NCBI GenBank assembly: GCA_021650915.1
Contig: CP091279.1
Span: 3,630,001 to 3,662,000 of the forward strand
Direction: 5' to 3'
DNA length: 32,000 nt
Origin: Candidatus Brocadia sp.
GTDB lineage: Bacteria > Planctomycetota > Brocadiia > Brocadiales > Brocadiaceae
Under the pieces are notes generated by a model, which was not told the origin of the DNA, did no database searches, and saw only the letters and a program-made list of their open reading frames with translations. Each line of letters opens with the position of its first letter. Position 1 is the first letter of the stretch. Shown here piece after piece: positions 2,912 to 32,000 of the stretch. The translations under genes and the position numbers were made by a program.

Positions 2912-3226
2912 TTATTGAAGAAAACCAGCAGGCAAATGGTTGCAGGCAAGCCAGGAGCGCATATATTGTCTCATATCCAACGCGTCCTTGTCTCGCTGTG
3001 TACCGTTATTACGGTGCGTGTCATGGAAAGATCTCCTGATAAAGTGCTTAATCCTCGCTGCTTTTGCAGCCGTTGCCAGAATTTTACCATGCCGTGTTTC
3101 TCTGGTGAGCCCGCGTTGTTTAACCGTTCTGAGATGAGCGATCCGGAGAACTCCCTGAAGTAGCTTATTTTCTGAAGTATGATCGCTAAAAACTTGTTTT
3201 GCTACGAGATCCCTTTTATTTACCAT
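2912..3226 (-). CDS. Small basic hypothetical protein (104 aa from internal ATG; ORF-track version starts at 3262)
   Basis: A strong SD (ACAGGAGGAAACATT-ATG) precedes the ATG at 3226 (MVNKRDLVAKQ...). It sits about 75 nt downstream of the leader terminator. No family recognised. Confidence 0.55.
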   Translation of the reverse strand: MVNKRDLVAKQVFSDHTSENKLLQGVLRIAHLRTVKQRGLTRETRHGKILATAAKAARIKHFIRRSFHDTHRNNGTQRDKDALDMRQYMRSWLACNHLPAGFLQ

Positions 3227-3300
3227 AATGTTTCCTCCTGTCTCCTCTTTATTATCTTTCATTGATCACAAGCCATGGTTCTGTTCACCTGGCTATAAAA

Positions 3301-3353
3301 TAAAAAAGCCTTACTGCAAAGATATTTTGTGAAACATCTTCGGCAGTAAGGCT
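3301..3353 (-). terminator. Intrinsic terminator / expression platform of leader RNA copy A
   Basis: The minus strand reads AGCCTTACTGC-(25-nt loop with inner AAGAT/ATCTT pairing)-GCAGTAAGGCT followed by a T-run. The stem sequence is identical to the terminator at 28138-28191. Confidence 0.65.
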
Positions 3354-3361
3354 ATCTTTTT

Positions 3362-3458
3362 CGCGGGGGGGAGAGGCGCGTTGCCACGCGCCTTTACCTC
3401 ATATCCGTCAAAAGACCCTTTCCTTTGCGTCCCCTGATTGCCCAGGGTTTGCCTTTGT
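3362..3458 (-). promoter_or_regulatory. GEMM-I (c-di-GMP-I)-like riboswitch aptamer candidate, copy A
   Basis: The minus strand reads AAAGGCAAA-CCCTGG-GCAA-TCAGGG-GACGCAAAGGAAAGGGTCTT. This matches the 5' half of the Vc2 c-di-GMP-I aptamer as I remember it (GGCAAA, 6-bp stem, GNRA loop, 6-bp stem, GACGCAAAG). The 3' half is not obviously canonical. A paralogue lies at 28018-28100. Confidence 0.5.
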
Positions 3459-3684
3459 CGTAATGTTCTTCTCTTATGCTTGTTTGTAAAATGTCATTGC
3501 TTAAAACAGAAATGAAGATACTCTATCATAGATAACTAGGTATCTCAAGTAAAAATAAAATTATTATTGCATTAGCACATTTTAGTATGGTCAAATAAAG
3601 GACCGAAAATTTCAGGGTGCTGCCGGTATTGTTATTACGTATCGATGGTGCACTCATTCCAGCGAAAACAAAGGAGGGTTTGAT

Positions 3685-4947
3685 CTGAACGCATACCTTG
3701 TTCTTGTCCTCTGTATTTATATCCTGAAAGAGACCTTTGAATATGCCGTACAATATTTCAATCTCAGGTATATGAAGAAGGTTGGTATTTTCGTACCGCC
3801 TGAATTTGAAGGAATTGTAGACGAGGCTCTTTTAAAAAAGACCGGGGACTATGAGACAGAAAAGACGCACTTCAGCTTTTTCTCCTCGATACTCAGTAAT
3901 GTCGCTACGATCATATTCATTTTTTGTGGTTTGCTGAATATTTATAATTCCTGGATAGCATCCCTGAACCTGCCATTTATCATTTCCGGATGGCTCTTCT
4001 TTCTCATTCTATCTTATGGAGGTGAATTCCTGTCCGTGCCTTTCCGTTGGTACAACACTTTTAAGATAGAGAACAAATACGGATTTACCACTACGACTTT
4101 GCGGTTATGGGCGTCTGACTTCATAAAAACACTCTTTATTTCAACGGTTATGATATCTCTGATGGCATGTGCGGGCTTCTGGCTTATTCAGTGGAGTCCG
4201 CTGTACTGGTGGTTCTGGATATGGGGTTTTCTCTTTCTTTTCAGCATTTGTATGATGTACCTGTCTCCCTATGTTATAGAGCCGTTATTTAATAAATTCA
4301 CCCCGATTGAGAACGACGCGTTGAAAGAAAGGATTCGTGAATTAACGGATAAGGCCGGTATTCGCGCAAGCCGGATCCTCAGAATCGATGCATCAAAGAG
4401 GAGCAAACATACCAACGCTTATTTTACCGGTATTGGAAAAACAAAGAGGATCGTCCTCTACGATACCTTACTTGAGACCATGAACCATAGTGAGATCATC
4501 GCTGTGCTGGCACATGAGATAGGCCATTGGAAGAAAAAGCATATGCTGAAAACGATCATTGCGTTTGAGGTTGTTTCGTTTATTGCCCTGTATTGCTCGT
4601 TTAAAATACTGCAAAGCGATGCCCTTCTGACGCTCTTTCACATTCGCACCAATACCCTCTTTGCAAAAATTATTATCCTTGCATTCCTTGCTGATATCCT
4701 CTCATTGTCCTTTATGCCATGCGTAAGCTATCTTATGAGGAGACATGAAATGCAGGCAGACAGGGCATCATATGAACTTACGAGGGATCCGGAAAGCATG
4801 ATAAGCGCCCTTGTAAAGCTATCGAAAGAGAATCTCACCAATCTGTATCCGCATCCGCTCTATGTCACCTTGTATTATTCACACCCTCCCATCCTTGGAA
4901 GGCTTCGGTATTTCAGGAAATTGTTAGAAAAAGATATTGGGCGATAA
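3685..4947 (+). CDS. M48 family zinc metalloprotease, Ste24/CAAX-prenyl-protease-like. The first ATG is at 3772; a probable non-canonical CTG start is at 3685.
   Basis: HEIGHWKKKH (HExxH) motif and multiple TM helices. The in-frame sequence upstream of 3772 encodes NAYLVLVLCIYILKETFEYAVQYFNLRY, the first TM helix and the LNLR motif seen in Ste24 homologues. It contains no ATG/GTG/TTG. SD AAGGAGG (3671-3677) lies 7 nt before CTG 3685. Confidence 0.85.
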   Translation: MNAYLVLVLCIYILKETFEYAVQYFNLRYMKKVGIFVPPEFEGIVDEALLKKTGDYETEKTHFSFFSSILSNVATIIFIFCGLLNIYNSWIASLNLPFIISGWLFFLILSYGGEFLSVPFRWYNTFKIENKYGFTTTTLRLWASDFIKTLFISTVMISLMACAGFWLIQWSPLYWWFWIWGFLFLFSICMMYLSPYVIEPLFNKFTPIENDALKERIRELTDKAGIRASRILRIDASKRSKHTNAYFTGIGKTKRIVLYDTLLETMNHSEIIAVLAHEIGHWKKKHMLKTIIAFEVVSFIALYCSFKILQSDALLTLFHIRTNTLFAKIIILAFLADILSLSFMPCVSYLMRRHEMQADRASYELTRDPESMISALVKLSKENLTNLYPHPLYVTLYYSHPPILGRLRYFRKLLEKDIGR

Positions 4948-7500: not shown

Positions 7501-7980
7501 TCATGGCACATTGAGGATCTTTTCTATCCTCTGTAAATAGTCCCGCTCAATGGTGCCATCTGATACCGTACGATTCCATCGATACGCCCGGCTCCCGCCC
7601 GGCGCCTTTTCTTCAAGCTGGGCTTGCATAGAAACATAGGTTTTGGCTTGTTCTCCCGTTACCTGAATCGTCAGGCGATATCGTTCCTGCCATTCTCCTC
7701 CCGTAATTAATCCGGTAGATTTTGTCGTAGACCAGCCTTTTATCCACTGAGTTCTTAACAACCCTTTTTCCATATCTTTTATTTCAACCTGAATCCCCGT
7801 CATTGCCTGATCAACGGCGTTCCATACGGTATTTACATCAGCATCAAAATACCGGGAAACAGCCGTCATATTTCTTAAACCGAGGCGACCTGGAGTACAC
7901 CCGGTAAAAAAGACAGCAAAGACGGCAATGGATAACAATATGCCGCTAGAAGTAATGCTTTGTAATCGTTTTGGTTTCAT
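7501..7980 (-). CDS. Putative lipoprotein (possibly BamC/NlpB-like; weak)
   Basis: 159 aa. Signal peptide plus lipobox: LLSIAVFAVFFTG-C. The remainder is soluble. The family assignment is only an impression. Confidence 0.7.
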   Translation of the reverse strand: MKPKRLQSITSSGILLSIAVFAVFFTGCTPGRLGLRNMTAVSRYFDADVNTVWNAVDQAMTGIQVEIKDMEKGLLRTQWIKGWSTTKSTGLITGGEWQERYRLTIQVTGEQAKTYVSMQAQLEEKAPGGSRAYRWNRTVSDGTIERDYLQRIEKILNVP

Positions 7981-13247: not shown

Positions 13248-14966
13248 GTAACTATTCAGCGTAATATCGCCCCCTATCGTTACGAGCTGGCAAAATCAGG
13301 CAATTTGCCGCGAAATACCATCCGTAATGCCTGACTTAAATTTACCCCTTGTTTTCGACAAGTCGAGAGATAACTACGGATGAGGCAGAAGATCTTCGCT
13401 CCGTCCAGAGAACGAAAACAGCCCGATATCTTCTGCTGAACCTTCGTCATCCTGATATCGTTTTCGGCCAGGTTATTCGTGAAGGGGACGTTTTTATTGT
13501 CCATAAATCTGAGCACATCACCCTCATACTCCCGTAATCGTTCCAGGAGATTCCGTGCTTTTGTCCTTTTTACCCGCCCTCTTTTCCCCTTGCGGTTCGT
13601 TTCATCAGGGGGCGGGCTTTCAGCTTCTGCGTTTTGTAATATCCCCCGGTACCTTTGCCGGTATTTCTCAGACTCGCCGTTTTCCAACAAACCCCCCGCA
13701 TCCTTTACCGCACGGTTTATCTCTTCGAGCAGGGCTTTCATCTCTTTCGCCCACGGTTGCTTCTTATCCTCTTCCCACACCCCCTCCAATTCCCTCAGGT
13801 GGTGTGCATTACAGAGCGCATGTGTACAGCGGGTGTAGGTGTAATACGCCTTCAAATGGTCGTGACAAAGAATCCCCCGAAACTGGGGCAGTATCCCGAT
13901 ACTATCCATCGCTTCCGTCCCACGTCTTTCGTGAGGGAAAAAGTGTGTCCACAAACTATTGGATGCACTATGCAGCCAATACCTGTCTCCGTTCTTGTTG
14001 ATGCTCGTTTCATCTGCCTGCAATACCTCTGATTTGACAAGTTCTTCCTTGGTTTTCCTCTCGAAGGCTTCCAGAGATTCGTAGGCATCCTTGTTAAAGT
14101 TGTAAAGAGAGCCTTCGCTCAGCGGTATCCCCATCTGCTCCTCAAAATACTCCTGGATCCTCTTATAGGGTATCAATTGATACTGTGACATATATACTGC
14201 GTGCGCTTTCAAATCCGGCCCATACTGCACTGCCTTTGTCACCCCTTCCGGAAATGACGCTACAAACCTACTTCCCTCCGCATCCTCAACTATCTCTGCC
14301 CGATACTCCGTTACCACCCTTGAAATCTTCATATCAAACACCTGACGCGACTCATAACCGATCAACCTGTATTTGCCGCTCGGATACTTCCTCCGGTCTA
14401 CTTTTATTACTTCCACCTTATCAGGATTGGCTACCTTTTTCAGCGTTACTCCATCATGACCCTCTTGCCCACCTGCCTTCCTCTCTCCTTTCGCCCTGCT
14501 CTTTCTCGTGCGATTCGGATCGCTTGCGGGCGGCTTACTACTGTTGCGACTGTTCCGGTTCAGACGTCCTACCAGCAGCGTTATCACTAACACCAACAAC
14601 TCTATCATTGACCTTATGGCAGGTGACAGACCTTTTTCCTCTGAAAGCAGCTTTTCTACTTTCCGCAGCGTTGCATCTATATCTATATTCTCTATCGTCA
14701 ATGGATGGCACCGGTATTAATAGCCTGAAATCATCTCCTGCGGCTATTATACCACAGGCTTTTTCACCCATTTTTTTCACCCTCTACCGCCCTACAAAAC
14801 TCTGTAATTCTCTGGCCGAACATACCCCACACCTCTCTTTGCAAAAACCTCCGATGGGCTACAGTGGCATCCTCCACAGCCATTTATTCTACCAACCAAT
14901 TCTACGGCCCCCTTTTCTCATGTTGACTGTCAACTAAATTCTAAAATATTTTCGCTGAATAGTTAC
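13248..14966 (-). mobile_element. IS66-family insertion sequence, single-ORF type (1719 bp)
   Basis: Perfect 14-bp terminal inverted repeats: GTAACTATTCAGCG at 13248-13261 and its reverse complement at 14953-14966. An 8-bp direct target duplication CTTTTTTT lies at 13240-13247 and 14967-14974. Confidence 0.9.
13280..14701 (-). CDS. IS66-family transposase
   Basis: 473 aa. It has an N-terminal coiled coil and a basic region (NSRNSSKPPSDP-like). The DDE core includes LQADETS, ILCHDHLKAYY, CNAHHLREL and FTNNLAENDIRM, all typical of IS66 TnpC-type transposases. Confidence 0.9.
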   Translation of the reverse strand: MTIENIDIDATLRKVEKLLSEEKGLSPAIRSMIELLVLVITLLVGRLNRNSRNSSKPPASDPNRTRKSRAKGERKAGGQEGHDGVTLKKVANPDKVEVIKVDRRKYPSGKYRLIGYESRQVFDMKISRVVTEYRAEIVEDAEGSRFVASFPEGVTKAVQYGPDLKAHAVYMSQYQLIPYKRIQEYFEEQMGIPLSEGSLYNFNKDAYESLEAFERKTKEELVKSEVLQADETSINKNGDRYWLHSASNSLWTHFFPHERRGTEAMDSIGILPQFRGILCHDHLKAYYTYTRCTHALCNAHHLRELEGVWEEDKKQPWAKEMKALLEEINRAVKDAGGLLENGESEKYRQRYRGILQNAEAESPPPDETNRKGKRGRVKRTKARNLLERLREYEGDVLRFMDNKNVPFTNNLAENDIRMTKVQQKISGCFRSLDGAKIFCLIRSYLSTCRKQGVNLSQALRMVFRGKLPDFASS

Positions 14967-17186
14967 CTTTTTTTCGGCTTCAGTAAGGGTCTTGTATTTA
15001 TCAAAGACCTTTTTCTCCAGGGCGGCCTGTGCATCTCTGATTTTCTTGCTTTCTTCAGCTTCCTGTTCTGCCAGCTTCACATATACCTTCAATATTTTTA
15101 ATTCTTCCTTGTCCTCAATTGTCCCTTGTTCATTATCCATTGTCAATTCTTTAACGCGTTTCTGCACACTGGCCTTAGTAATCTTATCCTTATCGTTTTT
15201 GGCATCGGCCATTAGCCCTTCTTCCCCGCCGTGTTCCTCTTCCATCTCTTCCATTTGTCTGACAATCGCATCACGGTCGGCCTCTAAATTATCAATGGCC
15301 TTTCGCTCTGTCGCAAAATAGCGGGCAACGATAAGCCCTTTGGGTATGAGGCGCCCTTCCCATTGTTTTTTATCTCTTTCTAATTCTCTCCCCACTTCCC
15401 ACCAGTCGCTTACCAGGGCATACACGTCATCCTGCATGGTTTCAGACCAGTAAACCATGAGATGCTGGTAAACATCGTATTTGTCGATCAGCTTTAAGCT
15501 GGAAAATACTTGCAGTAAATCTTCCGAGATTTCGTGTATCAGTTTTTTGGGTTTATCGCCAACGGCAATGCCTCTCAGTTTTGGTATGTTTTTGCTTTTC
15601 CATTGACTGAATACGGTGTCTACTTTTTTACTGTAAGCAGTAAACTCCGGGTGAGAGAAAATGCTGGGTTTTATGGCATCATGGGCAATAAGCAGCTTGC
15701 TGTAATTGACACGGTTTCCCGTCGTGAATAATGTCTTTCTCAGGGTCGGATAAACGTCCCAATACAAGTGCAAGGCGTCAATATCGTCATTGGGTATACC
15801 GCCCAGCAAATGCGCCTCAATATGCTGAATGTCCTCGCCCTCCTGGCTATCAATGTAGCGGGGGATATTCAGGTTAAACTCATTGGCCTCGATCTCCGTT
15901 ACCGGCGCCATGCGGCTGTATTTTTCCATTTCGAGCTGTTTGTTGAATACATCCACGATCTTGTGGATGTCCTGTTCCCGCAGGCGGTTTTTGTTGCCGT
16001 CTTTCTCGAAACCCTTGCTGGCATCGACCATGAAAATGCCTTTGCGGTGTTCTGCGCCTTCTTTATCAAGCACAATAATGCAGGCGGGGATGCCGGTGCC
16101 GTAAAAGAGGTTGGGAGGCAGGCCGATGATGCCTTTGATGTATCCCCTGCGAATGATATTTTTTCTTATTTCCCCCTCAGCGCCGCCGCGAAACAGCACC
16201 CCATGCGGGAGGATCACGGCGCCCTTGCCTTTGCTCTTTAAGGAGCGGATGATGTGCAGAAGAAAAGCATAGTCTCCATTTTTCTTCGGGGGTATACCGT
16301 AATCCTTGAAACGATCGTGGATATCGGATATGGTTCCATCCTGAACGGCAAATCCGTTACTCCATGCCTTGTATGAGAAGGGCGGATTGGCTACCGCAAA
16401 GTCAAAGGCCTTAAGTCTGCCTCTTTCGTCCAGAAACAACGGGCCGGAAAGGGTGTTCCCTTGTTTGATTTCTGCGGTCGGGTTGTTGTGCAGAATCATA
16501 TTCATGCGGGCAAGGGCGGCGGTGGCCACGTCCATCTCCTGCCCGTAAATCGTCATACCCGATTCTGATTCATCGGCCACCTTGAGCAGTAGCGATGCAG
16601 AGCCGCAGGTGGGATCATACCCTGTTGTTGATGGCGTTATTTTTGAGTTAAAAGTGATAATCTTCGCCATTATCCGGCTTACCTCGGCGGGGGTGTAGAA
16701 TTGTCCTTTGCTCTTGCCGCTCTCGGTGGCAAAGTGACGCATCAGGTATTCGTAGGCATCGCCAAGGATATCGTCCCCTTCTGCCCTGTTCTTACTGAAA
16801 TCGAGCGCCGGGTTTTCAAAGATGGCGATGAGATTGGAGAGGCGGTCAACCATCTCCTTGCCGCTGCCCAGTTTATCGGCGCTGTTGAAGTCGGCGACAT
16901 CGATGGTGCCGGTAAGCTTGTTGGCTTCGGCGATTTTTCTGATGATCTTCTTGTTAATGTCATCGCCAATGGTGGGCTTGCCTTTCAGGGCAACCATGTC
17001 TTGAAAGCTGGCGCCTTTGGGCACCGTAATAGGCGCATAGGGAACCCCGGCATATTTGTCAGAGATGTATTTGATGAACAACAGCACCAGCACATAGTCT
17101 TTATACTGAGAGGCATCCATCCCGCCGCGGAGTTCGTCACAACTTGCCCAGAGGGAGCCGTAGAGCTCAGATTTTTTGATAGCCAA
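14934..17186 (-). CDS. hsdM: Type I restriction-modification system methyltransferase subunit HsdM, C-terminus disrupted by IS66. The native sequence ends at 14967; the last 10 codons and the stop are IS-derived.
   Basis: HsdM N-terminal domain (MAIKKSELYGSLWASCDELRGGMDASQYKDYVLVLLFIKYISDK). AdoMet motif YDPTCGSASLL. Catalytic NPPF in VANPPFSYKAW. The C-terminal coiled coil is cut at EAEKK by the IS. Confidence 0.9.
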   Translation of the reverse strand: MAIKKSELYGSLWASCDELRGGMDASQYKDYVLVLLFIKYISDKYAGVPYAPITVPKGASFQDMVALKGKPTIGDDINKKIIRKIAEANKLTGTIDVADFNSADKLGSGKEMVDRLSNLIAIFENPALDFSKNRAEGDDILGDAYEYLMRHFATESGKSKGQFYTPAEVSRIMAKIITFNSKITPSTTGYDPTCGSASLLLKVADESESGMTIYGQEMDVATAALARMNMILHNNPTAEIKQGNTLSGPLFLDERGRLKAFDFAVANPPFSYKAWSNGFAVQDGTISDIHDRFKDYGIPPKKNGDYAFLLHIIRSLKSKGKGAVILPHGVLFRGGAEGEIRKNIIRRGYIKGIIGLPPNLFYGTGIPACIIVLDKEGAEHRKGIFMVDASKGFEKDGNKNRLREQDIHKIVDVFNKQLEMEKYSRMAPVTEIEANEFNLNIPRYIDSQEGEDIQHIEAHLLGGIPNDDIDALHLYWDVYPTLRKTLFTTGNRVNYSKLLIAHDAIKPSIFSHPEFTAYSKKVDTVFSQWKSKNIPKLRGIAVGDKPKKLIHEISEDLLQVFSSLKLIDKYDVYQHLMVYWSETMQDDVYALVSDWWEVGRELERDKKQWEGRLIPKGLIVARYFATERKAIDNLEADRDAIVRQMEEMEEEHGGEEGLMADAKNDKDKITKASVQKRVKELTMDNEQGTIEDKEELKILKVYVKLAEQEAEESKKIRDAQAALEKKVFDKYKTLTEAEKKVTIQRKYFRI

Positions 17187-20739: not shown

Positions 20740-21777
20740 TTACAGGAAGGCCTTCTCTAATTCTCCAAGAATGAGTTGCTGCACTTCGGCAATAGTGCCT
20801 TGTATTTCACAGCCGGCGGCATACTTATGGCCGCCGCCGCCAAACTTTTTTGCAACGTCGTTTACATTAAACCCATTTCTGCTTCTGAAACTTGCCTTAA
20901 TCCAGTTGGGTTTTGTCATCTCACGGAGCAGCACCCCAACGGTCACCCCCTCGATTGACACGGGAATGTCGGCAAATTCCTGCGTGTCGATAGCGTTGAT
21001 CTTCGCCTTCTCCAGCATCTCTTTTGTCAGCCAGATGACGGCAATCCGGTTCCCGGCGTGGAGGCCGACCGTGTTGAGCACCCGGGCGCGCAACTGGATC
21101 AGGGGAAAACTATTCGTGTTGTAAACATTTTTCGAAATTTCTTCATGCCGTGCACCGCGTTCAATGAGAAATGCAGCAGCCCTGAGCGCCGCAGGGGTCG
21201 TATTGCTGTGGGTAAACCGGCCCGTATCCGTTACGATTGCTACATATAAGGCCGTTGCCATATCCGGGGTAATATCAATGTCCATCTCCCTCAAAAGAGT
21301 CAGAACAATTTCCCCCGTGGCGCACATATCCTCCGCAACCCAATTGACCGCGCCAAAATATTCATTCGAGATGTGATGGTCTACATTGATAATTTTCGCA
21401 TCTTCGGGAATAATTTCCTGTATCATGCCGAGACGCTCAAGAGTGGGGCTATCGAGGGCAAAAACAACCTCTGCGCGATCTTTTGGGGAATCTGGGTAGA
21501 TATAAACCCCTTCCGGCGGAATGATGAATTGATACATCTGGGGAGTTGGGGAATCGTTGGCGATACAGACCGTTTTTCCCATGCTCCTGAGGGCATGATA
21601 GAGAGCCACTTCCGATCCGATACCGTCTCCGTCTGCCCGGACGTGGGTAGTAATGAGGAAGCGCTGATAGCGTTTTACCATGCTACAGATTTCTTCCCCA
21701 TGCATCTTGACGATCGTGTCTTCCACTGGTTTCCCTCCCCTGATCAGAACGCAACATCGTGCGCTGAACACAGTCAT
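20740..21777 (-). CDS. nrnA: DHH/DHHA1 phosphoesterase (NrnA-like oligoribonuclease / pAp phosphatase)
   Basis: HVRADGDGIGS, NVDHHISN and GGGGHKYAAG (DHHA1). The track ORF extends to 21942, but homologues are about 320-345 aa. ATG 21777 follows GGAAGA; 21705 is an alternative start. Confidence 0.82.
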   Translation of the reverse strand: MTVFSARCCVLIRGGKPVEDTIVKMHGEEICSMVKRYQRFLITTHVRADGDGIGSEVALYHALRSMGKTVCIANDSPTPQMYQFIIPPEGVYIYPDSPKDRAEVVFALDSPTLERLGMIQEIIPEDAKIINVDHHISNEYFGAVNWVAEDMCATGEIVLTLLREMDIDITPDMATALYVAIVTDTGRFTHSNTTPAALRAAAFLIERGARHEEISKNVYNTNSFPLIQLRARVLNTVGLHAGNRIAVIWLTKEMLEKAKINAIDTQEFADIPVSIEGVTVGVLLREMTKPNWIKASFRSRNGFNVNDVAKKFGGGGHKYAAGCEIQGTIAEVQQLILGELEKAFL

Positions 21778-21964
21778 TTTGTCTTCCATTCGTTGCCAAG
21801 AAAGGGCGATTATAGGGGAAACAGAGCCCTTTGTCAAACCTTCTTTTCCCTTGCATTTTATTCGTTGATACGTTACCATGAGAATTTGTAAGAAAATTGT
21901 TTTTTTCTCATAATCTTCATGGTGAAATAATCTCAAGAGCATTGTTTAAAAAGGCAGGGGTGAT

Positions 21965-25326: not shown

Positions 25327-25327
25327 T

Positions 25328-25610
25328 GTAACAATGTAGCTTTTTGAAAATTTTTCGTATCTCTTCAGCGTACTTTCGCTCACCATCACTACGAGTGAAC
25401 AAAATAGCGCTTCTTTAATCCCGAAGGGATGTCATGATTATAGCATATCGTTATGCAATTATGGTCAACCCCGTAAGGGGTGACATAGTATCGCTATTTT
25501 CCCGATATTTCACCCCTTACGGGGTTGAATAAGGTGGCATGGACAAACTCTGTTTGTCCGTGCTGAACTACTATAAATCACAAATTGTGAGCCTGTGGAG
25601 TATAAATTGT
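25328..25610. repeat. Composite hairpin-repeat block L, the inverted partner of 28215-28707
   Basis: It contains a GTAACAATGTAGCTTTTTGAAAA terminus and an IS66-TIR-like GTATCTCTTCAGCGTAC. It also has the arm AATCCCGAAGGGATGTCATGATTATAG and the hairpins CAACCCCGTAAGGGGTG/CACCCCTTACGGGGTTG and GGACAAAC-TCT-GTTTGTCC. About 88% of roughly 205 bp match the reverse complement of 28497-28710. Confidence 0.75.
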
Positions 25611-25721
25611 TAGTTTTTAGTCTGGTCATTCCCGCCCGGGGAAATTTTATCCTGCAACACCGGAGAGACAGTCTTCATCACCTTGCTATTTTTTAAAACG
25701 GAAGGAATTTTTGAATCTCTT

Positions 25722-26498
25722 ATGCTTGCGAAAAGAATCATACCGTGTCTGGACGTCAAGGACGGGCGGGTCGTCAAAGGAACCAATTTCTTAAATTTGA
25801 AAGACGCCGGAGACCCGGTAGAAATAGCGGCATTATACGACAGAGAAGGCGCCGACGAACTAACCTTCCTCGACATTACCGCCTCCCATGAAAACAGGAA
25901 CATCATTCTTGACGTTGTAAAAAGAACTGCTGAACAGGTATTTATGCCGTTAACCGTTGGTGGAGGCATCCGTAATATTGACGACATCCGTCGGCTGCTC
26001 ACTGCAGGTGCAGATAAGGTCTCTATCAATACGGCGGCAGTGAAAGAGCCGGAGTTTATTACCAAGGCCTCCCGGCGATTTGGTAGCCAGTGCATCGTGA
26101 TCGCGATCGACGCAAAAAGGGTACAAGGCAATTTTGAAACACCACGATGGGAAGTTTACATAAATGGCGGCAGGACACCTACCGGCCTCGATGCCGTTGA
26201 ATGGGCAAAGGCCGCAGAGAATCGGGGAGCCGGTGAAATATTATTGACCAGCATGGACTGTGATGGCACCAGGGATGGGTTTGATATTGCATTAAACAAA
26301 ACGATATCCGAGGCAGTAAACATCCCCGTCATTGCATCCGGCGGGGCCGGTAAGGTAGAGCATTTTTACGATGTTTTTACAAGAGGAAAGGTAGACGCAG
26401 CGCTGGCCGCCTCAATTTTTCATTATAGGACGATTTCCATACAAACCGTGAAGGAATATTTAATAAAAAATGGTGTTAGCATAAGGCCATATAAGTAG
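25722..26498 (+). CDS. hisF: Imidazole glycerol phosphate synthase cyclase subunit HisF
   Basis: [20 protein letters not shown]..., [24 protein letters not shown] and IASGGAG. The track ORF starts 13 codons earlier at a TTG. Confidence 0.92.
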
Positions 26499-26763: not shown

Positions 26764-27207
26764 TTAAGTCTTATATATGAGGGCTAAGAATCTTGTTACA
26801 GAAATGACGGATATACCGTACTGTATCAAGAAAGAGGAAACCGATTTGTCAAACTTAATATCATCGTCTCTTGTGACAAGAAATGCTGTTTGTCCCTTTA
26901 TCGCTGTTTCAATGATGAGGTTATCATCTTTATCCCGGCAAATAGCAATATCTCCCGAGAGTAAAACAGATTCTGCCCGTTCTTCTACCAGTATTAAGAG
27001 TTCTTTAATATCGTTTTCGGTAATCCCATATTTATCTTTTATCCTTGGACGGTTAAGAACATCTGCAAGTTCTTCAAGTATAGGTTCTGAAATGACAGCA
27101 AGGAAAGCGCCTTCTTCAAAGGATTTTCTTAGTCTGGCGGGAAATCCGAATGGATTAAGCACAGAAGATACCCATATATTGGTATCAATAACAGCCTTAA
27201 CGGCCAC
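26764..27207 (-). CDS. PIN-domain toxin (putative ribonuclease of a type II TA pair)
   Basis: 147 aa with AVIDTNIWVSS, ISEPILEEL and FLVTRDDD acidic motifs. It overlaps the upstream antitoxin gene by 11 nt. Confidence 0.85.
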   Translation of the reverse strand: MAVKAVIDTNIWVSSVLNPFGFPARLRKSFEEGAFLAVISEPILEELADVLNRPRIKDKYGITENDIKELLILVEERAESVLLSGDIAICRDKDDNLIIETAIKGQTAFLVTRDDDIKFDKSVSSFLIQYGISVISVTRFLALIYKT

Positions 27208-27436
27208 GTTTTTCTTTTCTAACCTCTTCTATAGCATGGGAAATATCAGATTCTATTTCTTCCGGGGTGTATTGCTTCGTTGTTATATGTATTTTCCCAA
27301 TAATGCGATTAAAGCGGTTCTGCCAGTCATCAAGAGAGATGATCTTGATTGCAACCTTTTCATGCTCTTTGACCTCAATGTGCTGCAGTGGCTTAAAAAC
27401 ACCATTTTCAAAGATAGCATCTATTACTTTAGACAT
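27197..27436 (-). CDS. DUF104/AF2212-like antitoxin
   Basis: MSKVIDAIFENGVFKPLQHIEVKEHEKVAIKI is the signature N-terminus of DUF104 antitoxins paired with PIN toxins. The track ORF starts 25 codons earlier (27511). Confidence 0.75.
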   Translation of the reverse strand: MSKVIDAIFENGVFKPLQHIEVKEHEKVAIKIISLDDWQNRFNRIIGKIHITTKQYTPEEIESDISHAIEEVRKEKRGR

Positions 27437-27548
27437 AATTTTGTAACCCCGATATTTGAATATAAATCTTTGTAAGATTTTACTTGTAATGCATGAGGTG
27501 TTTTTTGTCAAGAAATATTTGTTGCAGCAAGGTAAGGGTAAGCATTAT

Positions 27549-27944: not shown

Positions 27945-27972
27945 TTGCAAAATAATTATTTCAAGGTATAAT
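27945..27972 (+). promoter_or_regulatory. Near-consensus sigma70-type promoter
   Basis: TTGCAA (27945-50), a 16-nt spacer, then TATAAT (27967-72). It lies about 45 nt upstream of the GEMM-like aptamer. Confidence 0.55.
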
Positions 27973-28017
27973 GATCGAGCGTTCTTTTTTATTAAGAACC
28001 TACGATGGATAGCTTGA

Positions 28018-28100
28018 TAAAGGCAAACCCTGAGCAATCAGGGGACGCAAAGGAAAGGGTCTTCCCCTGTACAGGGTAGTAGAGGGGTAAAATAACAGGT
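28018..28100 (+). promoter_or_regulatory. GEMM-I (c-di-GMP-I)-like riboswitch aptamer candidate, copy B
   Basis: AAAGGCAAA-CCCTGA-GCAA-TCAGGG-GACGCAAAGGAAAGGGTCTT. The architecture is the same as copy A. The innermost stem pair is A-T here and G-T in copy A. Confidence 0.5.
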
Positions 28101-28137
28101 TGTTACGTATACGGAAATACGGGTAGCACAAAAAGAT

Positions 28138-28191
28138 AGCCTTACTGCCAAAAAATATTTATATAAATCTTTGGCAGTAAGGCTTTTTTTT
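28138..28191 (+). terminator. Intrinsic terminator / expression platform of leader RNA copy B
   Basis: AGCCTTACTGCC, a 22-nt AT-rich loop, GGCAGTAAGGCT, then T8. Confidence 0.7.
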
Positions 28192-28214: not shown

Positions 28215-28707
28215 GTGATAACAATTTATGCTCCACAGGCTCGCAGTTTGTGATTTATAGTAGTTCAACACGGACAAACAGAGTTTGTCCATGCCACCTT
28301 ATTATCAATTTATACTCGAAGGGTTCATAAACAATGATTTCTAACATTTCACATAACTTTTGTTCACATAAATGGTTAAAGTGTTTCAAAAATCACATTT
28401 TGTGAACTCCCCGAGTATAAAATTCATATTTTATGAGCATCTTGAGTATAGTTTTTTTTAAAATCCCGAAGGGATGACATGATTATAGAAAAAACACACC
28501 ACCCTATTTAACCCCGTAAGGGGTGAAATATCGGGAAAATAGCGATACTATGCCACCCCTACGGGGTTGACCATAATTGCATAACCATGTGCTATAATCA
28601 TGACATCCCTTCGGGATTACAGAAGCACTATTTTGTTTATGCGTAGTGATGGTGAGTGAAAGTACGCTGAATAGTTACGAGAATTTTTCAAAAAGCTAAA
28701 TTGTTAC
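28215..28707. repeat. Composite nested hairpin-repeat block R, the inverted partner of 25328-25610
   Basis: It contains the reverse complements of the L-block modules. The long hairpin arms are 28463-28489 and 28592-28618 (AATCCCGAAGGGATGACATGATTATAG / CTATAATCATGACATCCCTTCGGGATT). An inserted palindromic element lies at about 28309-28450. TACGCTGAATAGTTAC (28663-28678) is identical to the IS66 end. Confidence 0.75.
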
Positions 28708-28800
28708 ATTTCGTGAAAGAGGGGCAATTGCAACAAAAGGTGGACATGGAAATGGCTGAATATCAAATTTTTTATTTTAGAGAAGAGGAGGAAATGACGT

Positions 28801-31800
28801 ATGACGATTAATAAAAAGTCTCGAACAACACCATCGCTGTTGAGCGCCATGGTGTTCATATGTGCGGTTTTTATGGTGACCTTATGCGGGACAGGAGTTA
28901 CCTATGGACTTACCCATAGCAGTAATATTACCAGTGATGAGACGTGGTATACCGCTGACAACCCCCATATCGTTACAGGAGGCATACACGTATACAACAA
29001 TGCTACATTAAAGATAGAGGCCGGGTGTCAGGTAAGGTTTGATCCAGGAGCAGTCCTTTACTTCGGGTATTACAGCGGGGCTGCCCTGAACGCCACGGGT
29101 ACAAGCCTTAATCCCATCACCTTTACCTCAAACGCGGCGACCCCTGCGCCCAATGACTGGGATGGAATCGTCTTTTTCAACTCCACAGATGACGCCTCAA
29201 CGATTATGGACTATTGCACGGTGGAATACGGCGGGTATAGCGCTTATCAATCCAACATCTATTGCAACACCGCATCGCCTACCATCCAGAATTGCACCAT
29301 CCGGCACTCTGGCGAGTATGGGATATATTGTGACAACTATTCAGCCCCTACGTTAATCAACAATACGATAAGCAATAATGGCTGGTTCCCGATAACTTTA
29401 AATTGCAACAATCTGGACACCCATGTGGCGGGCAACACGGGGAGCGGCAACGGAACGGATGCCATTGAGGTGCGGGGCGGAGGTATTACCTCGAGCCATA
29501 CCTGGGTTCCGCAGGATTTCAACTTTACTGTAACGGATAGTATACATGTGTACAATGATGCCATTTTGACGATAAACCCCGGATGTCTTGTGAAATTTCG
29601 TCAAGGGACAGGGCTTTACATCGGGTATTACAGCGGGGCAACCTTGAATGCCACGGGTACAAGCCTTAATCCCATCACCTTTACCTCAGGTGTAGCAACC
29701 CCTGCGCCTGATGACTGGGAGGGAATCGTTTTTTTCAACTCCACAGTTGACGCCTCAACGATTATGGACTATTGCACCGTGGAATACGGCGGGTTTAGGA
29801 GTTATCATTCCAACATCAATTGTAATAATTCCTCGCCAACCATCCAGAATTGCACCATACGTTATTCTGACGAGTATGGGATATATTGTGACGACGCTTC
29901 AGCCCCTACGTTAACCAACAATACGATAAGCAATAATGGCGCCTTCCCGATAAGCTTGTTCTGCAACCTGCTGGATACCAATGTGACGGGGAATACGGGG
30001 AGCAGCAACGGAACGAATGCCATTGAGGTGCGGGGCGGAGGTATTACCTTAAGCCGCACCTGGGTTCCGCAAGACTTCTACTTCAATGTAACGGGGAGTG
30101 GTATCCATGTATTTAGCGACGCCATATTGACAATAAACCCGGGGTCTCTGGTAAAGTTTAACGCTATGACAGGCCTTTACATCGGGTATTACAGCGCTGC
30201 TACCTTGATCGCCGATGGCACGAGCGGCAATCCCATTACCTTTACCTCAAATGGGGCAACTCCTGCGCCTGGTGGCTGGGAGGGAATCGTTTTTTACAAC
30301 TCCACAGATGACGCCTCAACGATTTTGGACTATTGCACCGTGGAATACGGCGGGTATGACACTTTCAATTCCAACATCAATTGCGACCAGGCTTCGCCTA
30401 CCATCCAGAATTGCACCATACGGCACTCTGACGGGTATGGGATATATTGTGATAACGGCGCAGCCCCTACGCTTACAAACAATACGATAAGCAACAATGG
30501 ATTATTCCCCATAAGCGAGTTCTGCAACACGCTGGACAGCAATGTGACTGGGAATACGGGGATCGGCAACACGCCAAACGCCATTGAGGTGCGGGGCGGG
30601 AATATAACGTTAAGTCATACCTGGGTTCCGCAAGACTTCTACTTCAATGTAACGGGGAGTGGTATCCATGTATTTAGCGACGCCATATTGACAATAAACC
30701 CGGGGTCTCTGGTAAAGTTTAACGCTATGACAGGCCTTTACATCGGGTATTACAGCGCTGCTACCTTGATCGCCGATGGCACGAGCGGCAATCCCATTAC
30801 CTTTACCTCAAATGGGGCAACTCCTGCGCCTGGTGACTGGGAGGGAATCGTTTTTTACAACTCCACAGATGACGCCTCAACGATTTTGGACTATTGCACC
30901 GTGGAATACGGCGGGTATGACACTTATAATTCCAACATCAACTGCAATCAGGCTTCGCCTACCATTCAGCGTTGTCTCATAAGAAATTCGGATGGCTATG
31001 GAATTCATACAACGGGTAGCGGCGCACAGCCATTGATTTCTTGTTCAACGATAACGGACAACACACATGGCGTCTATGTAGCTAGTGGTAATCCAACCAT
31101 AGAAAATTGCAGCATTGCAGGCAATACAAGTTACGGAGTTTTCACTAATACATTCATTTATGCAGAAAACAACTGGTGGGGTAATGCCAGCGGTCCATCC
31201 GGCGTTGGACCAGGCTCTGGCGATGCCGTCAGCAGCGATGTGGACTATACCCCATGGTTAAGCGCGTATAACAGTTGTCTTGAGACGATTGTTTTAAGCC
31301 CGTCATCTGAGACGAATCTTATCGGCACCCAGCATACCGTTACTGCGACCGTGACAGATGATGCTTCTGACCCAATGGAGGGTATCGTGTTATTTTTTTA
31401 CATTACCTCTGGCCCACACGCAGGGCTAAATAGTAATGTTACAACGGATTCAAATGGTCAGGCGACGTTTACCTACACGGGGACGCTGGAAGGCACGGAC
31501 ATAATTGAGGCGAGTTTTACCGATTTTCACGGGCGGACCATAACATCAGGTCCGGTCACAAAGACGTGGGAATCGTTACCACCGACTCCAACGCCAACGC
31601 CTTCACCAACGCCGACACCGGAGCCAACACCAAGTCCAACACCGTCTCCAACACCGGAGCCAACACCGAGTCCAACCCCAAGTCCAACTCCGTCTCCGAC
31701 ACCAAGTCCGACCCCGACCCCTGCAGCATGTCCTTGTCCGGACGCAGAGGCATGCTATTCCTTTGACGAAGGGAATGGGAATGTGGCTGGCGACTCGTCG

Positions 31801-32000
31801 GGCAATGGTCATAACGGCGCAATCGCTGGCGCAAGCTGGACCATCGGAAATGACGGCAGTGGTCTGAGTTTTGACGGGGTTGACGATGAGGTATCAATTC
31901 CGGTCCTGAACAGCGAGGAAGTCTCCTTCAGCGCATGGTTCTATAAGAATGCGAATAATCCGTTGAGATATAGTTTCATCTTCGACGGAATCAGGACGCA
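28801..32000 (+). CDS. Large secreted/surface protein: signal peptide, tandem right-handed parallel beta-helix modules, Ig-like domain, PT-rich linker, LamG/concanavalin-like domain. The 3' end lies beyond the window.
   Basis: Absent from the ORF track (no stop in the window). ATG 28801 lies 8 nt after GAGGAGGA. My translation begins [32 protein letters not shown]. Repeats of ...[39 protein letters not shown]...[24 protein letters not shown]...[16 protein letters not shown] follow. Then come [11 protein letters not shown], an Ig-like segment ([22 protein letters not shown]...ATFTYTG), the (TPSPTPEP)n linker, and [30 protein letters not shown]...[14 protein letters not shown]. Confidence 0.85.
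28984..31000 (+). repeat. In-frame tandem repeat, period 558/561/561 bp, about 3.6 copies
   Basis: Unit starts (the IHV... codon) are at 28984, 29542, 30103 and 30664. Copies 3 and 4 are almost identical over about 340 bp (30058-30400 versus 30619-30961). Confidence 0.9.
31579..31722 (+). repeat. Pro/Thr/Ser-rich linker encoded by short degenerate tandem repeats
   Basis: [48 protein letters not shown], encoded by reiterated CCAACACCGAGTCCA-type units. Confidence 0.9.

Follow-up and report, generated by a model that had tools for sequence, protein, structure and literature searches.

The window that we analysed is a stretch of 32,000 nucleotides from a contig of Candidatus Brocadia sp. (CP091279.1, positions 3,630,001 to 3,662,000), and its minus-strand segment 3297-3463 is, with high probability, a complete c-di-GMP-I riboswitch with a terminator as its expression platform, predicted to bind its ligand and to act as an ON switch. 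An Rfam cmscan of the whole window returned exactly two matches above the gathering score, both to RF01051 (gathering score 35) and both spanning model positions 1-87 of 87: copy A at 3339-3463(-), with 58.1 bits and E = 4.5e-09, and copy B at 28012-28152(+), with 54.8 bits and E = 2.9e-08. Our searches demonstrate that copy A is an ordinary member of the known class c-di-GMP-I (GEMM-I, RF01051); all features of RF01051 membership that can be checked in silico were found in the element, and the same model matches six other assemblies at 58.1-58.2 bits. Compared with shuffled sequences, the leaders of copies A and B fold far more stably, with z-scores of -5.9 and -6.9, respectively. An earlier note on this DNA had proposed such a covariance-model search, and both copies pass the RF01051 gathering score. 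It had also described the reverse complement of 3411-3456 as nearly identical to 28019-28064, and indeed both blocks are 46 nt long and differ at two positions: a G/A change at the closing pair of the first hairpin, which is structure-neutral, as had been claimed (G.U in copy A, A-U in copy B), and the last base of the block (T/C). The view that these are two functional regulatory RNAs and not a recently copied repeat is borne out by the RF01051 scores, the presence of the contact positions, and conservation with covariation across four genera. Both copies do face a downstream ORF, one with its ATG at 3226 (copy A) and the other starting at 28801(+) (copy B).

We mapped residues to the numbering of the Vibrio cholerae Vc2 aptamer by the 27-nt spacing between G20 and A47 and by the inter-helix pair C44-G83 (PMC4744006), a pair that is universally conserved; the ligand contacts of Vc2 are G20, A47 and C92, with G12, A39 and C104 as their equivalents in Vc1 (PMC4744006). 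In copy A (3339-3463, minus strand) G20 falls at 3453, C44 at 3429, A47 at 3426, G83 at 3352 and C92 at 3343, while in its paralog copy B (28012-28152, plus strand) G20 is at 28022 and C92 at 28148. The three contact bases and the C44-G83 pair are all as expected and have Vc2-like spacing, the distance between G20 and A47 being 27 nt as in both Vc2 and Vc1. The first hairpin of copy A (3432-3447, minus strand) has a 6-bp stem, CCCUGG/UCAGGG, capped by GCAA, a GNRA tetraloop of the GYRA type; after it come GACGC-AAA and then the second hairpin, the AAA being the linker that is the rule between the two hairpins of GEMM RNAs (PMC1950547). In the RF01051 alignment the second hairpin opens at AGGA-A-AGGGUC, directly 3' of the 5' block shared by the two copies, and closes at GAU-AG-CCUUACU, within what had been presumed to be a terminator arm. 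The canonical base of this hairpin contains a G.A mismatch and bulges; a single-sequence ViennaRNA fold of the aptamer-only transcript did not recover it and paired AAGGC with GCCUU instead, and RNAalifold recovered it independently in two ortholog sets. At the outer end of the aptamer only the pairs G14-C93 and C13-G94 are supported (95% paired; C13-G94 is CG in 41 copies, UG in 3 and UA in 2). An extended outer helix, AACAUU (3466-3461) with GAUGUU (3338-3333), was considered and rejected, just 64% of its cells being paired across the family of related copies described below.

The terminator shares a strand with this aptamer. Its stems had been reported to be identical in the two copies and its loops to be different, and this is what we found: both copies read AGCCTTACTGC...GCAGTAAGGCT, followed by a T run. 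The intrinsic terminator of copy A (3297-3353, minus strand) has its 5' arm, AGCCUUACUGC, at 3353-3343 and its 3' arm, GCAGUAAGGCU, at 3317-3307, with a perfect 11-bp stem, an upper stem AAGAU/AUCUU and the U tract U6AU4 (3307-3297), and that of copy B (28138-28191, plus strand) has AGCCUUACUGCCAAA at 28138-28148 and UUUGGCAGUAAGGCU at 28174-28184, then U8. The 5' arm AGCCUUACUGC is aptamer A82-C92, i.e., the 3' strand of the second hairpin with G83 and the ligand-contacting C92; as this arm doubles as the aptamer 3' strand, aptamer and terminator are mutually exclusive, and the terminator stem is conserved in sequence because it is the aptamer's own 3' strand. The element thereby has the make-up of an ON-type platform, namely a terminator hairpin with a U tract whose 5' arm overlaps aptamer nucleotides required for binding. 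The full-length minimum-free-energy folds of both leaders include the terminator hairpin, and forbidding the terminator 3' arm costs 16.1 kcal/mol in copy A and 23.7 kcal/mol in copy B; in these folding models the terminator is the thermodynamic default. From this default, together with the mutual exclusion of aptamer and terminator, we infer an ON switch.

The RF01051 alignment also overturned one proposal of the earlier note, that the element consists of an aptamer half, an unrelated spacer and a separate terminator: cmscan places the middle inside the second hairpin of the aptamer and scores it as an insertion at the tip (49 nt in copy A, 71 nt in copy B). What had been taken for a divergent middle is therefore a variable tip of the second hairpin, at 3358-3413(-) in copy A and 28062-28133(+) in copy B. 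The segments between the shared blocks are unrelated, as had been observed (56 nt in copy A, 3413-3358; 72 nt in copy B), and the GGCGCG-TGGCAA-CGCGCC hairpin described in the middle of copy A was located at 3392-3375. Although the two tips are unrelated to each other, each is conserved in its own lineage. RNAalifold of copy A with its Brocadia orthologues gave a tip hairpin with three double-compensated pairs (GGCGCG/CGCGCC versus GACGCA/UGCGUC), and the tip of copy B belongs to a subfamily of ~72-nt tips in which two helices covary, one of them a 5-bp hairpin with AGGGAA as its cap; from this lineage conservation and these compensated helices it follows that the tips are structured extensions. 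Across 59 copies the tip ranges from 25 to 240 nt in length, with a median of 56 nt. An unlikely idea is that the tip is no neutral filler but a tuning or docking domain specific to each gene. If it were true, there would be at least 6-9 near-identical c-di-GMP sensor-terminator modules per anammox genome, each individualised by a structured insert (e.g., the ~72-nt AGGGAA-capped subfamily, the tips made of the GUUUAAAC palindromic repeat, or the GGCGCG hairpin of copy A), and such an insert could adjust folding kinetics or the ligand threshold, stand in for the absent tetraloop receptor, or serve as a binding site for a second factor.

Several other features of the tips were observed. In many paralogues the tip consists of tandem self-complementary C-N-GTTTAAAC-like units, the number of which varies, giving tips of ~29-73 nt (L060:2843-2915(+), L012:4759-4814(+), L018, L023, L031, L042, L044, L057 and L064), which on sequence grounds suggests an expandable palindromic repeat. 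Inserts of 152-240 nt are present in the tips of three paralogues (L068, in the copy matched at 7775-7814(-), L027:3049-3200(+) and L066:7349-7588(+)); they have sequence in common (…CACCGCAAGGGCGCTAAGGTCGCAAAG…) and resemble a short mobile element whose insertion into the tip spared the flanking aptamer strands. Two MAGs labelled Pacearchaeota and Latescibacterota carry GEMM-I RNAs with a GC-rich hairpin tip of ~60 nt (L013:458-640(+) and L062(-)) and a compensated second hairpin (GGAGCGGGUC…AGCCGCACUGCC), and thus long tips occur beyond anammox bacteria too, though the archaeal label (Pacearchaeota) may be a binning error.

The wider family was collected by scanning contigs of one genome per species with the pattern GGCAAACC-N10-20-GGGACGCAAAGGNNNGGGTC. 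This pattern requires G20, so that A20 paralogues lie outside its reach, and it fixes parts of the 5' half, where invariance is therefore partly by construction. It identified 64 loci, mostly in Candidatus Brocadia, Jettenia, Scalindua, Loosdrechtia and other Brocadiaceae, with nine matches in Brocadia sp. DTUAMX2 and six in the complete genome of Ca. B. pituitae; 59 copies, the two of the window included, are of the anammox type. Two of the loci, L008 in Ca. B. pituitae and L070 in DTUAMX2, share both the leader and the first ORF with copy A and are clearly its orthologues. The 3' strand and terminator, which the pattern leaves unconstrained, are almost invariant, reading AGAYAGCCUUACUGCCGAAGAU...AUCUUUGCAGUAAGGCUUUUUU.

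For covariation we aligned the 49 copies with an intact terminator, their tips trimmed (alignment A1). The aptamer structure is 86% paired in these 49 copies, compared with 36-52% for slid partners, and 13 of its pairs show double changes, with none of 500 shuffles reaching any of the observed measures. The signal lies mainly in the first hairpin, where four of the six pairs have double changes and 99% of cells are paired (one pair is UA in 26 copies, CG in 10 and GC in 8), plus the two junction-closing pairs, copy B having U-A at C13-G94. A lack of covariation, which the earlier note had named as a ground for giving up its interpretation, is hence not what the 49 copies show. The second hairpin and the terminator, the latter 93.5% paired across the family, are nearly frozen and so yield little covariation; the sole double change in the terminator (A to C with U to G) coincides exactly with the G.A mismatch of the second hairpin. 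As judged from the alignment, the frozen sequence fits a three-way constraint, in which one sequence would have to serve the second-hairpin 5' strand, the 3' strand and the terminator 3' arm, and the terminator stem would be conserved in sequence because of this three-way pairing. Two further weaknesses that the note had foreseen, location inside coding regions and random orientation, did not materialise: just four of the 59 aptamers lie under a stop-free frame of at least 120 aa, and most copies have the start of a same-strand ORF within a few hundred nt.

Family members also differ around the terminator. In L060 (~1940(+)), L044 (~3110(+)) and L027 (~3225(+)) it is broken right after GAAGATGTTTA by a common foreign sequence (TGTCTTCCAGTTGTCCAATCGCAAGCCC…), and this TGTCTTCCAGTTGTCCAATCGCAAGCCC insertion in the terminator loop should, if the model of the switch is right, uncouple the switch in these three loci. 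In Ca. Loosdrechtia aerotolerans (L011:2954-3160(+), L030 and L034) the tip is short, at 25-33 nt, and the layout of the platform differs from that in Brocadia in that there is a separate downstream terminator, the 5' arm of which (AACCUUACUGC or GGCCUUACCC) looks like a duplicated aptamer 3' strand. Finally, L068 has a (CCAAT)n microsatellite of ~11 units at ~4360-4430(-), 3' of the riboswitch terminator and before the next ORF, possibly a slipped-strand variable tract.

We propose the following sequence of events for copy A. As the leader emerges, the 6-bp GCAA-capped first hairpin would form first, and next the long irregular second hairpin, in which AGGA-A-AGGGUC would pair with GAU-AG-CCUUACU around the lineage-specific 56-nt tip. 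c-di-GMP is predicted to bind at the junction via G20 (3453), A47 (3426) and C92 (3343), and the bound ligand would keep the second hairpin closed. Without ligand, the much more stable terminator hairpin would form and transcription would stop near 3300; with ligand bound during transcription, the terminator would be unable to nucleate, and polymerase would read on into the NmrA-like / FMN-reductase / B12-radical-SAM / type III PKS operon, which makes the element a predicted ON switch. On this model, transcription most likely continues only when c-di-GMP is bound.

A riboswitch that binds c-di-GMP but works as an OFF switch, or mainly at the level of translation rather than by ligand-dependent anti-termination, is very unlikely here. 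Both ON and OFF GEMM-I switches exist, Cd1 being an OFF switch, and the family includes a member without a terminator, L031, with an ORF 50 nt downstream; nevertheless, in copies A and B alike the aptamer 3' strand forms the 5' arm of the terminator, so that a bound aptamer and the terminator are incompatible, a separate anti-terminator is not evident, and the Shine-Dalgarno sequence and ATG lie ~74 nt (copy A) or 610 nt (copy B) past the terminator and are unpaired with aptamer sequence. The identity of the ligand can be questioned along similar lines, as the fold and the ON-type terminator platform equal those of the Geobacter pilM cGAMP switch and the base 5' of G20 varies in the family (A, G, U or C), which might point to a Geobacter-like GEMM-Ib riboswitch sensing 3',3'-cGAMP, or both dinucleotides, rather than c-di-GMP. 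We regard this as highly improbable. The GEMM-Ib (cGAMP) riboswitches have A at the position equivalent to 20, A14 in Gs1761 (PMC6140456), whereas both window copies have G at this specificity position (3453 and 28022) and lack the adenine that would mark GEMM-Ib at the equivalent of Vc2 G20; wild-type Vc2, which has G20, discriminates against cGAMP, with a KD of ~10 uM versus picomolar for c-di-GMP (PMC6140456). We did consider the A before GGC as position 20, which would imply cGAMP, and ruled this out, since the G20-A47 spacing and the C44-G83 pair make that A position 19; it is position 19, not 20, that is free to vary among family members. Because position 20 is G in both copies, c-di-GMP and not cGAMP is the predicted ligand, as judged from sequence; the earlier suggestion of cyclic dinucleotides as ligands thus stands as regards the GEMM class and can be narrowed to c-di-GMP.

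It could also be argued that the copies are a dispersed repeat, a mobile element or decayed relics that resemble GEMM-I without having a regulatory function, given that module and terminator are near-identical over many copies per genome (nine in DTUAMX2, six in Ca. B. pituitae) and that repeats and insertions cluster near some copies. This is extremely improbable when set against a module that is conserved between genera while tips, loops and flanks diverge freely, compensatory changes in the first hairpin, the retention of all ligand-contact bases, placement consistently 5' of genes and a regulon typical of GEMM. Moreover, the three-way pairing constraint can account for the frozen sequence, and the lone double change in the terminator sits at the G.A mismatch of the second hairpin.

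The GGAGGA Shine-Dalgarno sequence and the ATG at 3226 are where the earlier note had placed them, ~74 nt past the T run (given there as ~75). The first ORF behind copy A (2912-3226, minus strand) encodes 104 aa with a weak NmrA-like match and has the GGAGGA 8 nt upstream; its orthologue in Ca. Brocadia pituitae, behind the same leader, has 151 aa, and from this comparison the 104-aa ORF looks like a shortened version. The rest of the putative operon (1-2809) comprises, by Pfam matches and all on the minus strand, an FMN reductase/flavodoxin-like gene (2809-2195) and a gene for a B12-binding radical SAM protein (2116-689), followed by one for a type III polyketide synthase, which from ~689 runs off the window. 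This gene order is repeated on six other contigs, and many contigs that encode the exact FMN-reductase protein also share the leader and the order of genes. The window, L002, L003 and L006 have an unbroken B12-binding radical SAM gene; in L001, L004 and L005 it is split into two or three ORFs, for which frameshifts or assembly errors could be responsible. A cluster of flavoprotein, B12-radical-SAM and type III PKS genes is an unusual target set for a c-di-GMP riboswitch, and no paper that combines anammox bacteria with type III polyketides and radical SAM enzymes came up in the literature searched. Upstream of copy A there is a candidate sigma-70-type promoter (3525-3553, minus strand; TTTACT-17-TATGAT) with 9 of 12 consensus matches, which is no better than in shuffled sequences and is weak evidence.

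Copy B has a candidate promoter at 27945-27972(+) (TTGCAA-16-TATAAT, 10 of 12 consensus matches), and its downstream gene, which begins 610 nt past the terminator (28801-32000, plus strand, running off the window), encodes a protein of more than 1066 aa that is secreted and has beta-helix, NosD and Big_1 domains. The 610 nt that separate riboswitch B from this ORF consist for the most part of one arm of an inverted repeat of ~290 nt with 91-95% identity (25327-25612 / 28219-28708), the right copy being ~195 nt longer; between the arms lie hisF (25722-26498), a minus-strand PIN toxin/antitoxin pair, and copy B together with its promoter. Public contigs with an identical HisF mostly end at these repeats. 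The idea that the segment from hisF to riboswitch B is invertible is unsupported: the only two contigs long enough to span it share the orientation of the window, with no inversion seen, and the rest break at the repeats. Nested palindromes within the inverted repeat (28462-28618 and 25420-25528), one with 27-nt arms at 96% identity (28462-28488 / 28592-28618) around a palindrome with 13-nt arms and another with 23-nt arms (25465-25528), look MITE- or REP-like in sequence. Rfam matches in the 610-nt leader were limited to sub-threshold miRNA-like hairpins, which we dismissed as chance matches to the long palindromes, and a 232-aa ORF at 26777-27475(+) was likewise discarded, as it is not on record and the real genes there are those of the PIN toxin and antitoxin on the minus strand. 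Between the two riboswitches lie genes for an IS66-family transposase (13280-14701, minus strand), a type I restriction-modification HsdM methylase (14934-17186, minus strand) and a DHH/DHHA1 phosphoesterase (20740-21942, minus strand). No GGDEF, EAL or HD-GYP domain was found among the window ORFs scanned.

c-di-GMP figures in explanations of how granules and biofilms form in anammox reactors. The first ORFs behind family copies encode surface giants (BACON, SBBP/DUF7948/CBM9 and Kelch proteins), PilM, a prepilin-like protein, an N-acetylmuramoyl-L-alanine amidase, a sigma-54 activator, a radical SAM enzyme, a CHASE2-cyclase and a cytochrome c', which by analogy is the typical GEMM set of "environment, membranes, motility" targets. 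No paper about riboswitches of anammox bacteria turned up in the literature searched; this is a descriptive gap, not a sign of a new kind of element. For riboswitch biology there is nothing new in kind in a textbook receptor-less GEMM-I RNA that standard Rfam annotation detects, and the residual novelty is a lineage-specific, frozen sensor-terminator module with a hypervariable structured hairpin tip. The practical value, which is for anammox research, lies in naming directly from sequence the genes of Brocadia, Jettenia and Scalindua that are candidates for induction by c-di-GMP, among them genes for giant surface proteins (beta-helix, BACON, SBBP and Kelch), for pili and for a cell-wall amidase, as well as the copy A operon.

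The expression platform is likewise of a known type, as comparison with characterized systems makes clear. With Vc2 the window copies share a two-hairpin aptamer, the AAA linker, a GNRA loop on the first hairpin, the G20/A47/C92 contacts, the C44-G83 inter-helix pair and a 5' cis-regulatory position; unlike Vc2, they have a GCAA (GYRA) tetraloop without the 11-nt tetraloop receptor and a second hairpin with a distal extension (56 nt in copy A, 72 nt in copy B), and the expression platform of Vc2 is not a terminator of this kind. Another counterpart is the GEMM subtype that lacks the receptor and whose terminator overlaps the second hairpin; it accounted for 78 of 322 GEMMs in the study of Weinberg et al. 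2007 (PMC1950547, Fig. 2B), which already listed 'Plantomycetes' among the GEMM-rich phyla. The anammox copies resemble this subtype in that they have the AAA linker and a GYRA loop but no receptor, that an A is bulged close to where the second hairpin begins, and that the 3' part of this hairpin faces competition from the terminator; they depart from it in being unusually uniform, terminator included, while having a tip of unusually variable length (25-240 nt). The GEMM-Ib riboswitch of Geobacter metallireducens pilM is a transcriptional ON switch in which the terminator sequesters C75, the equivalent of C92 (PMC9262584); there as here aptamer and terminator are mutually exclusive and the C that forms the Watson-Crick pair with the ligand is sequestered (C75 there, C92 here), but the specificity position is A in pilM, a cGAMP sensor, and G in the window copies. 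The Clostridioides difficile Cd1 c-di-GMP-I riboswitch, an OFF switch (PMC9262584), has the same class of aptamer and also controls transcription. In Cd1, however, aptamer and terminator coexist and an anti-terminator competes with them, whereas in the window copies it is the terminator itself that competes with the aptamer, and regulation is therefore predicted to be opposite in sign to that of Cd1.
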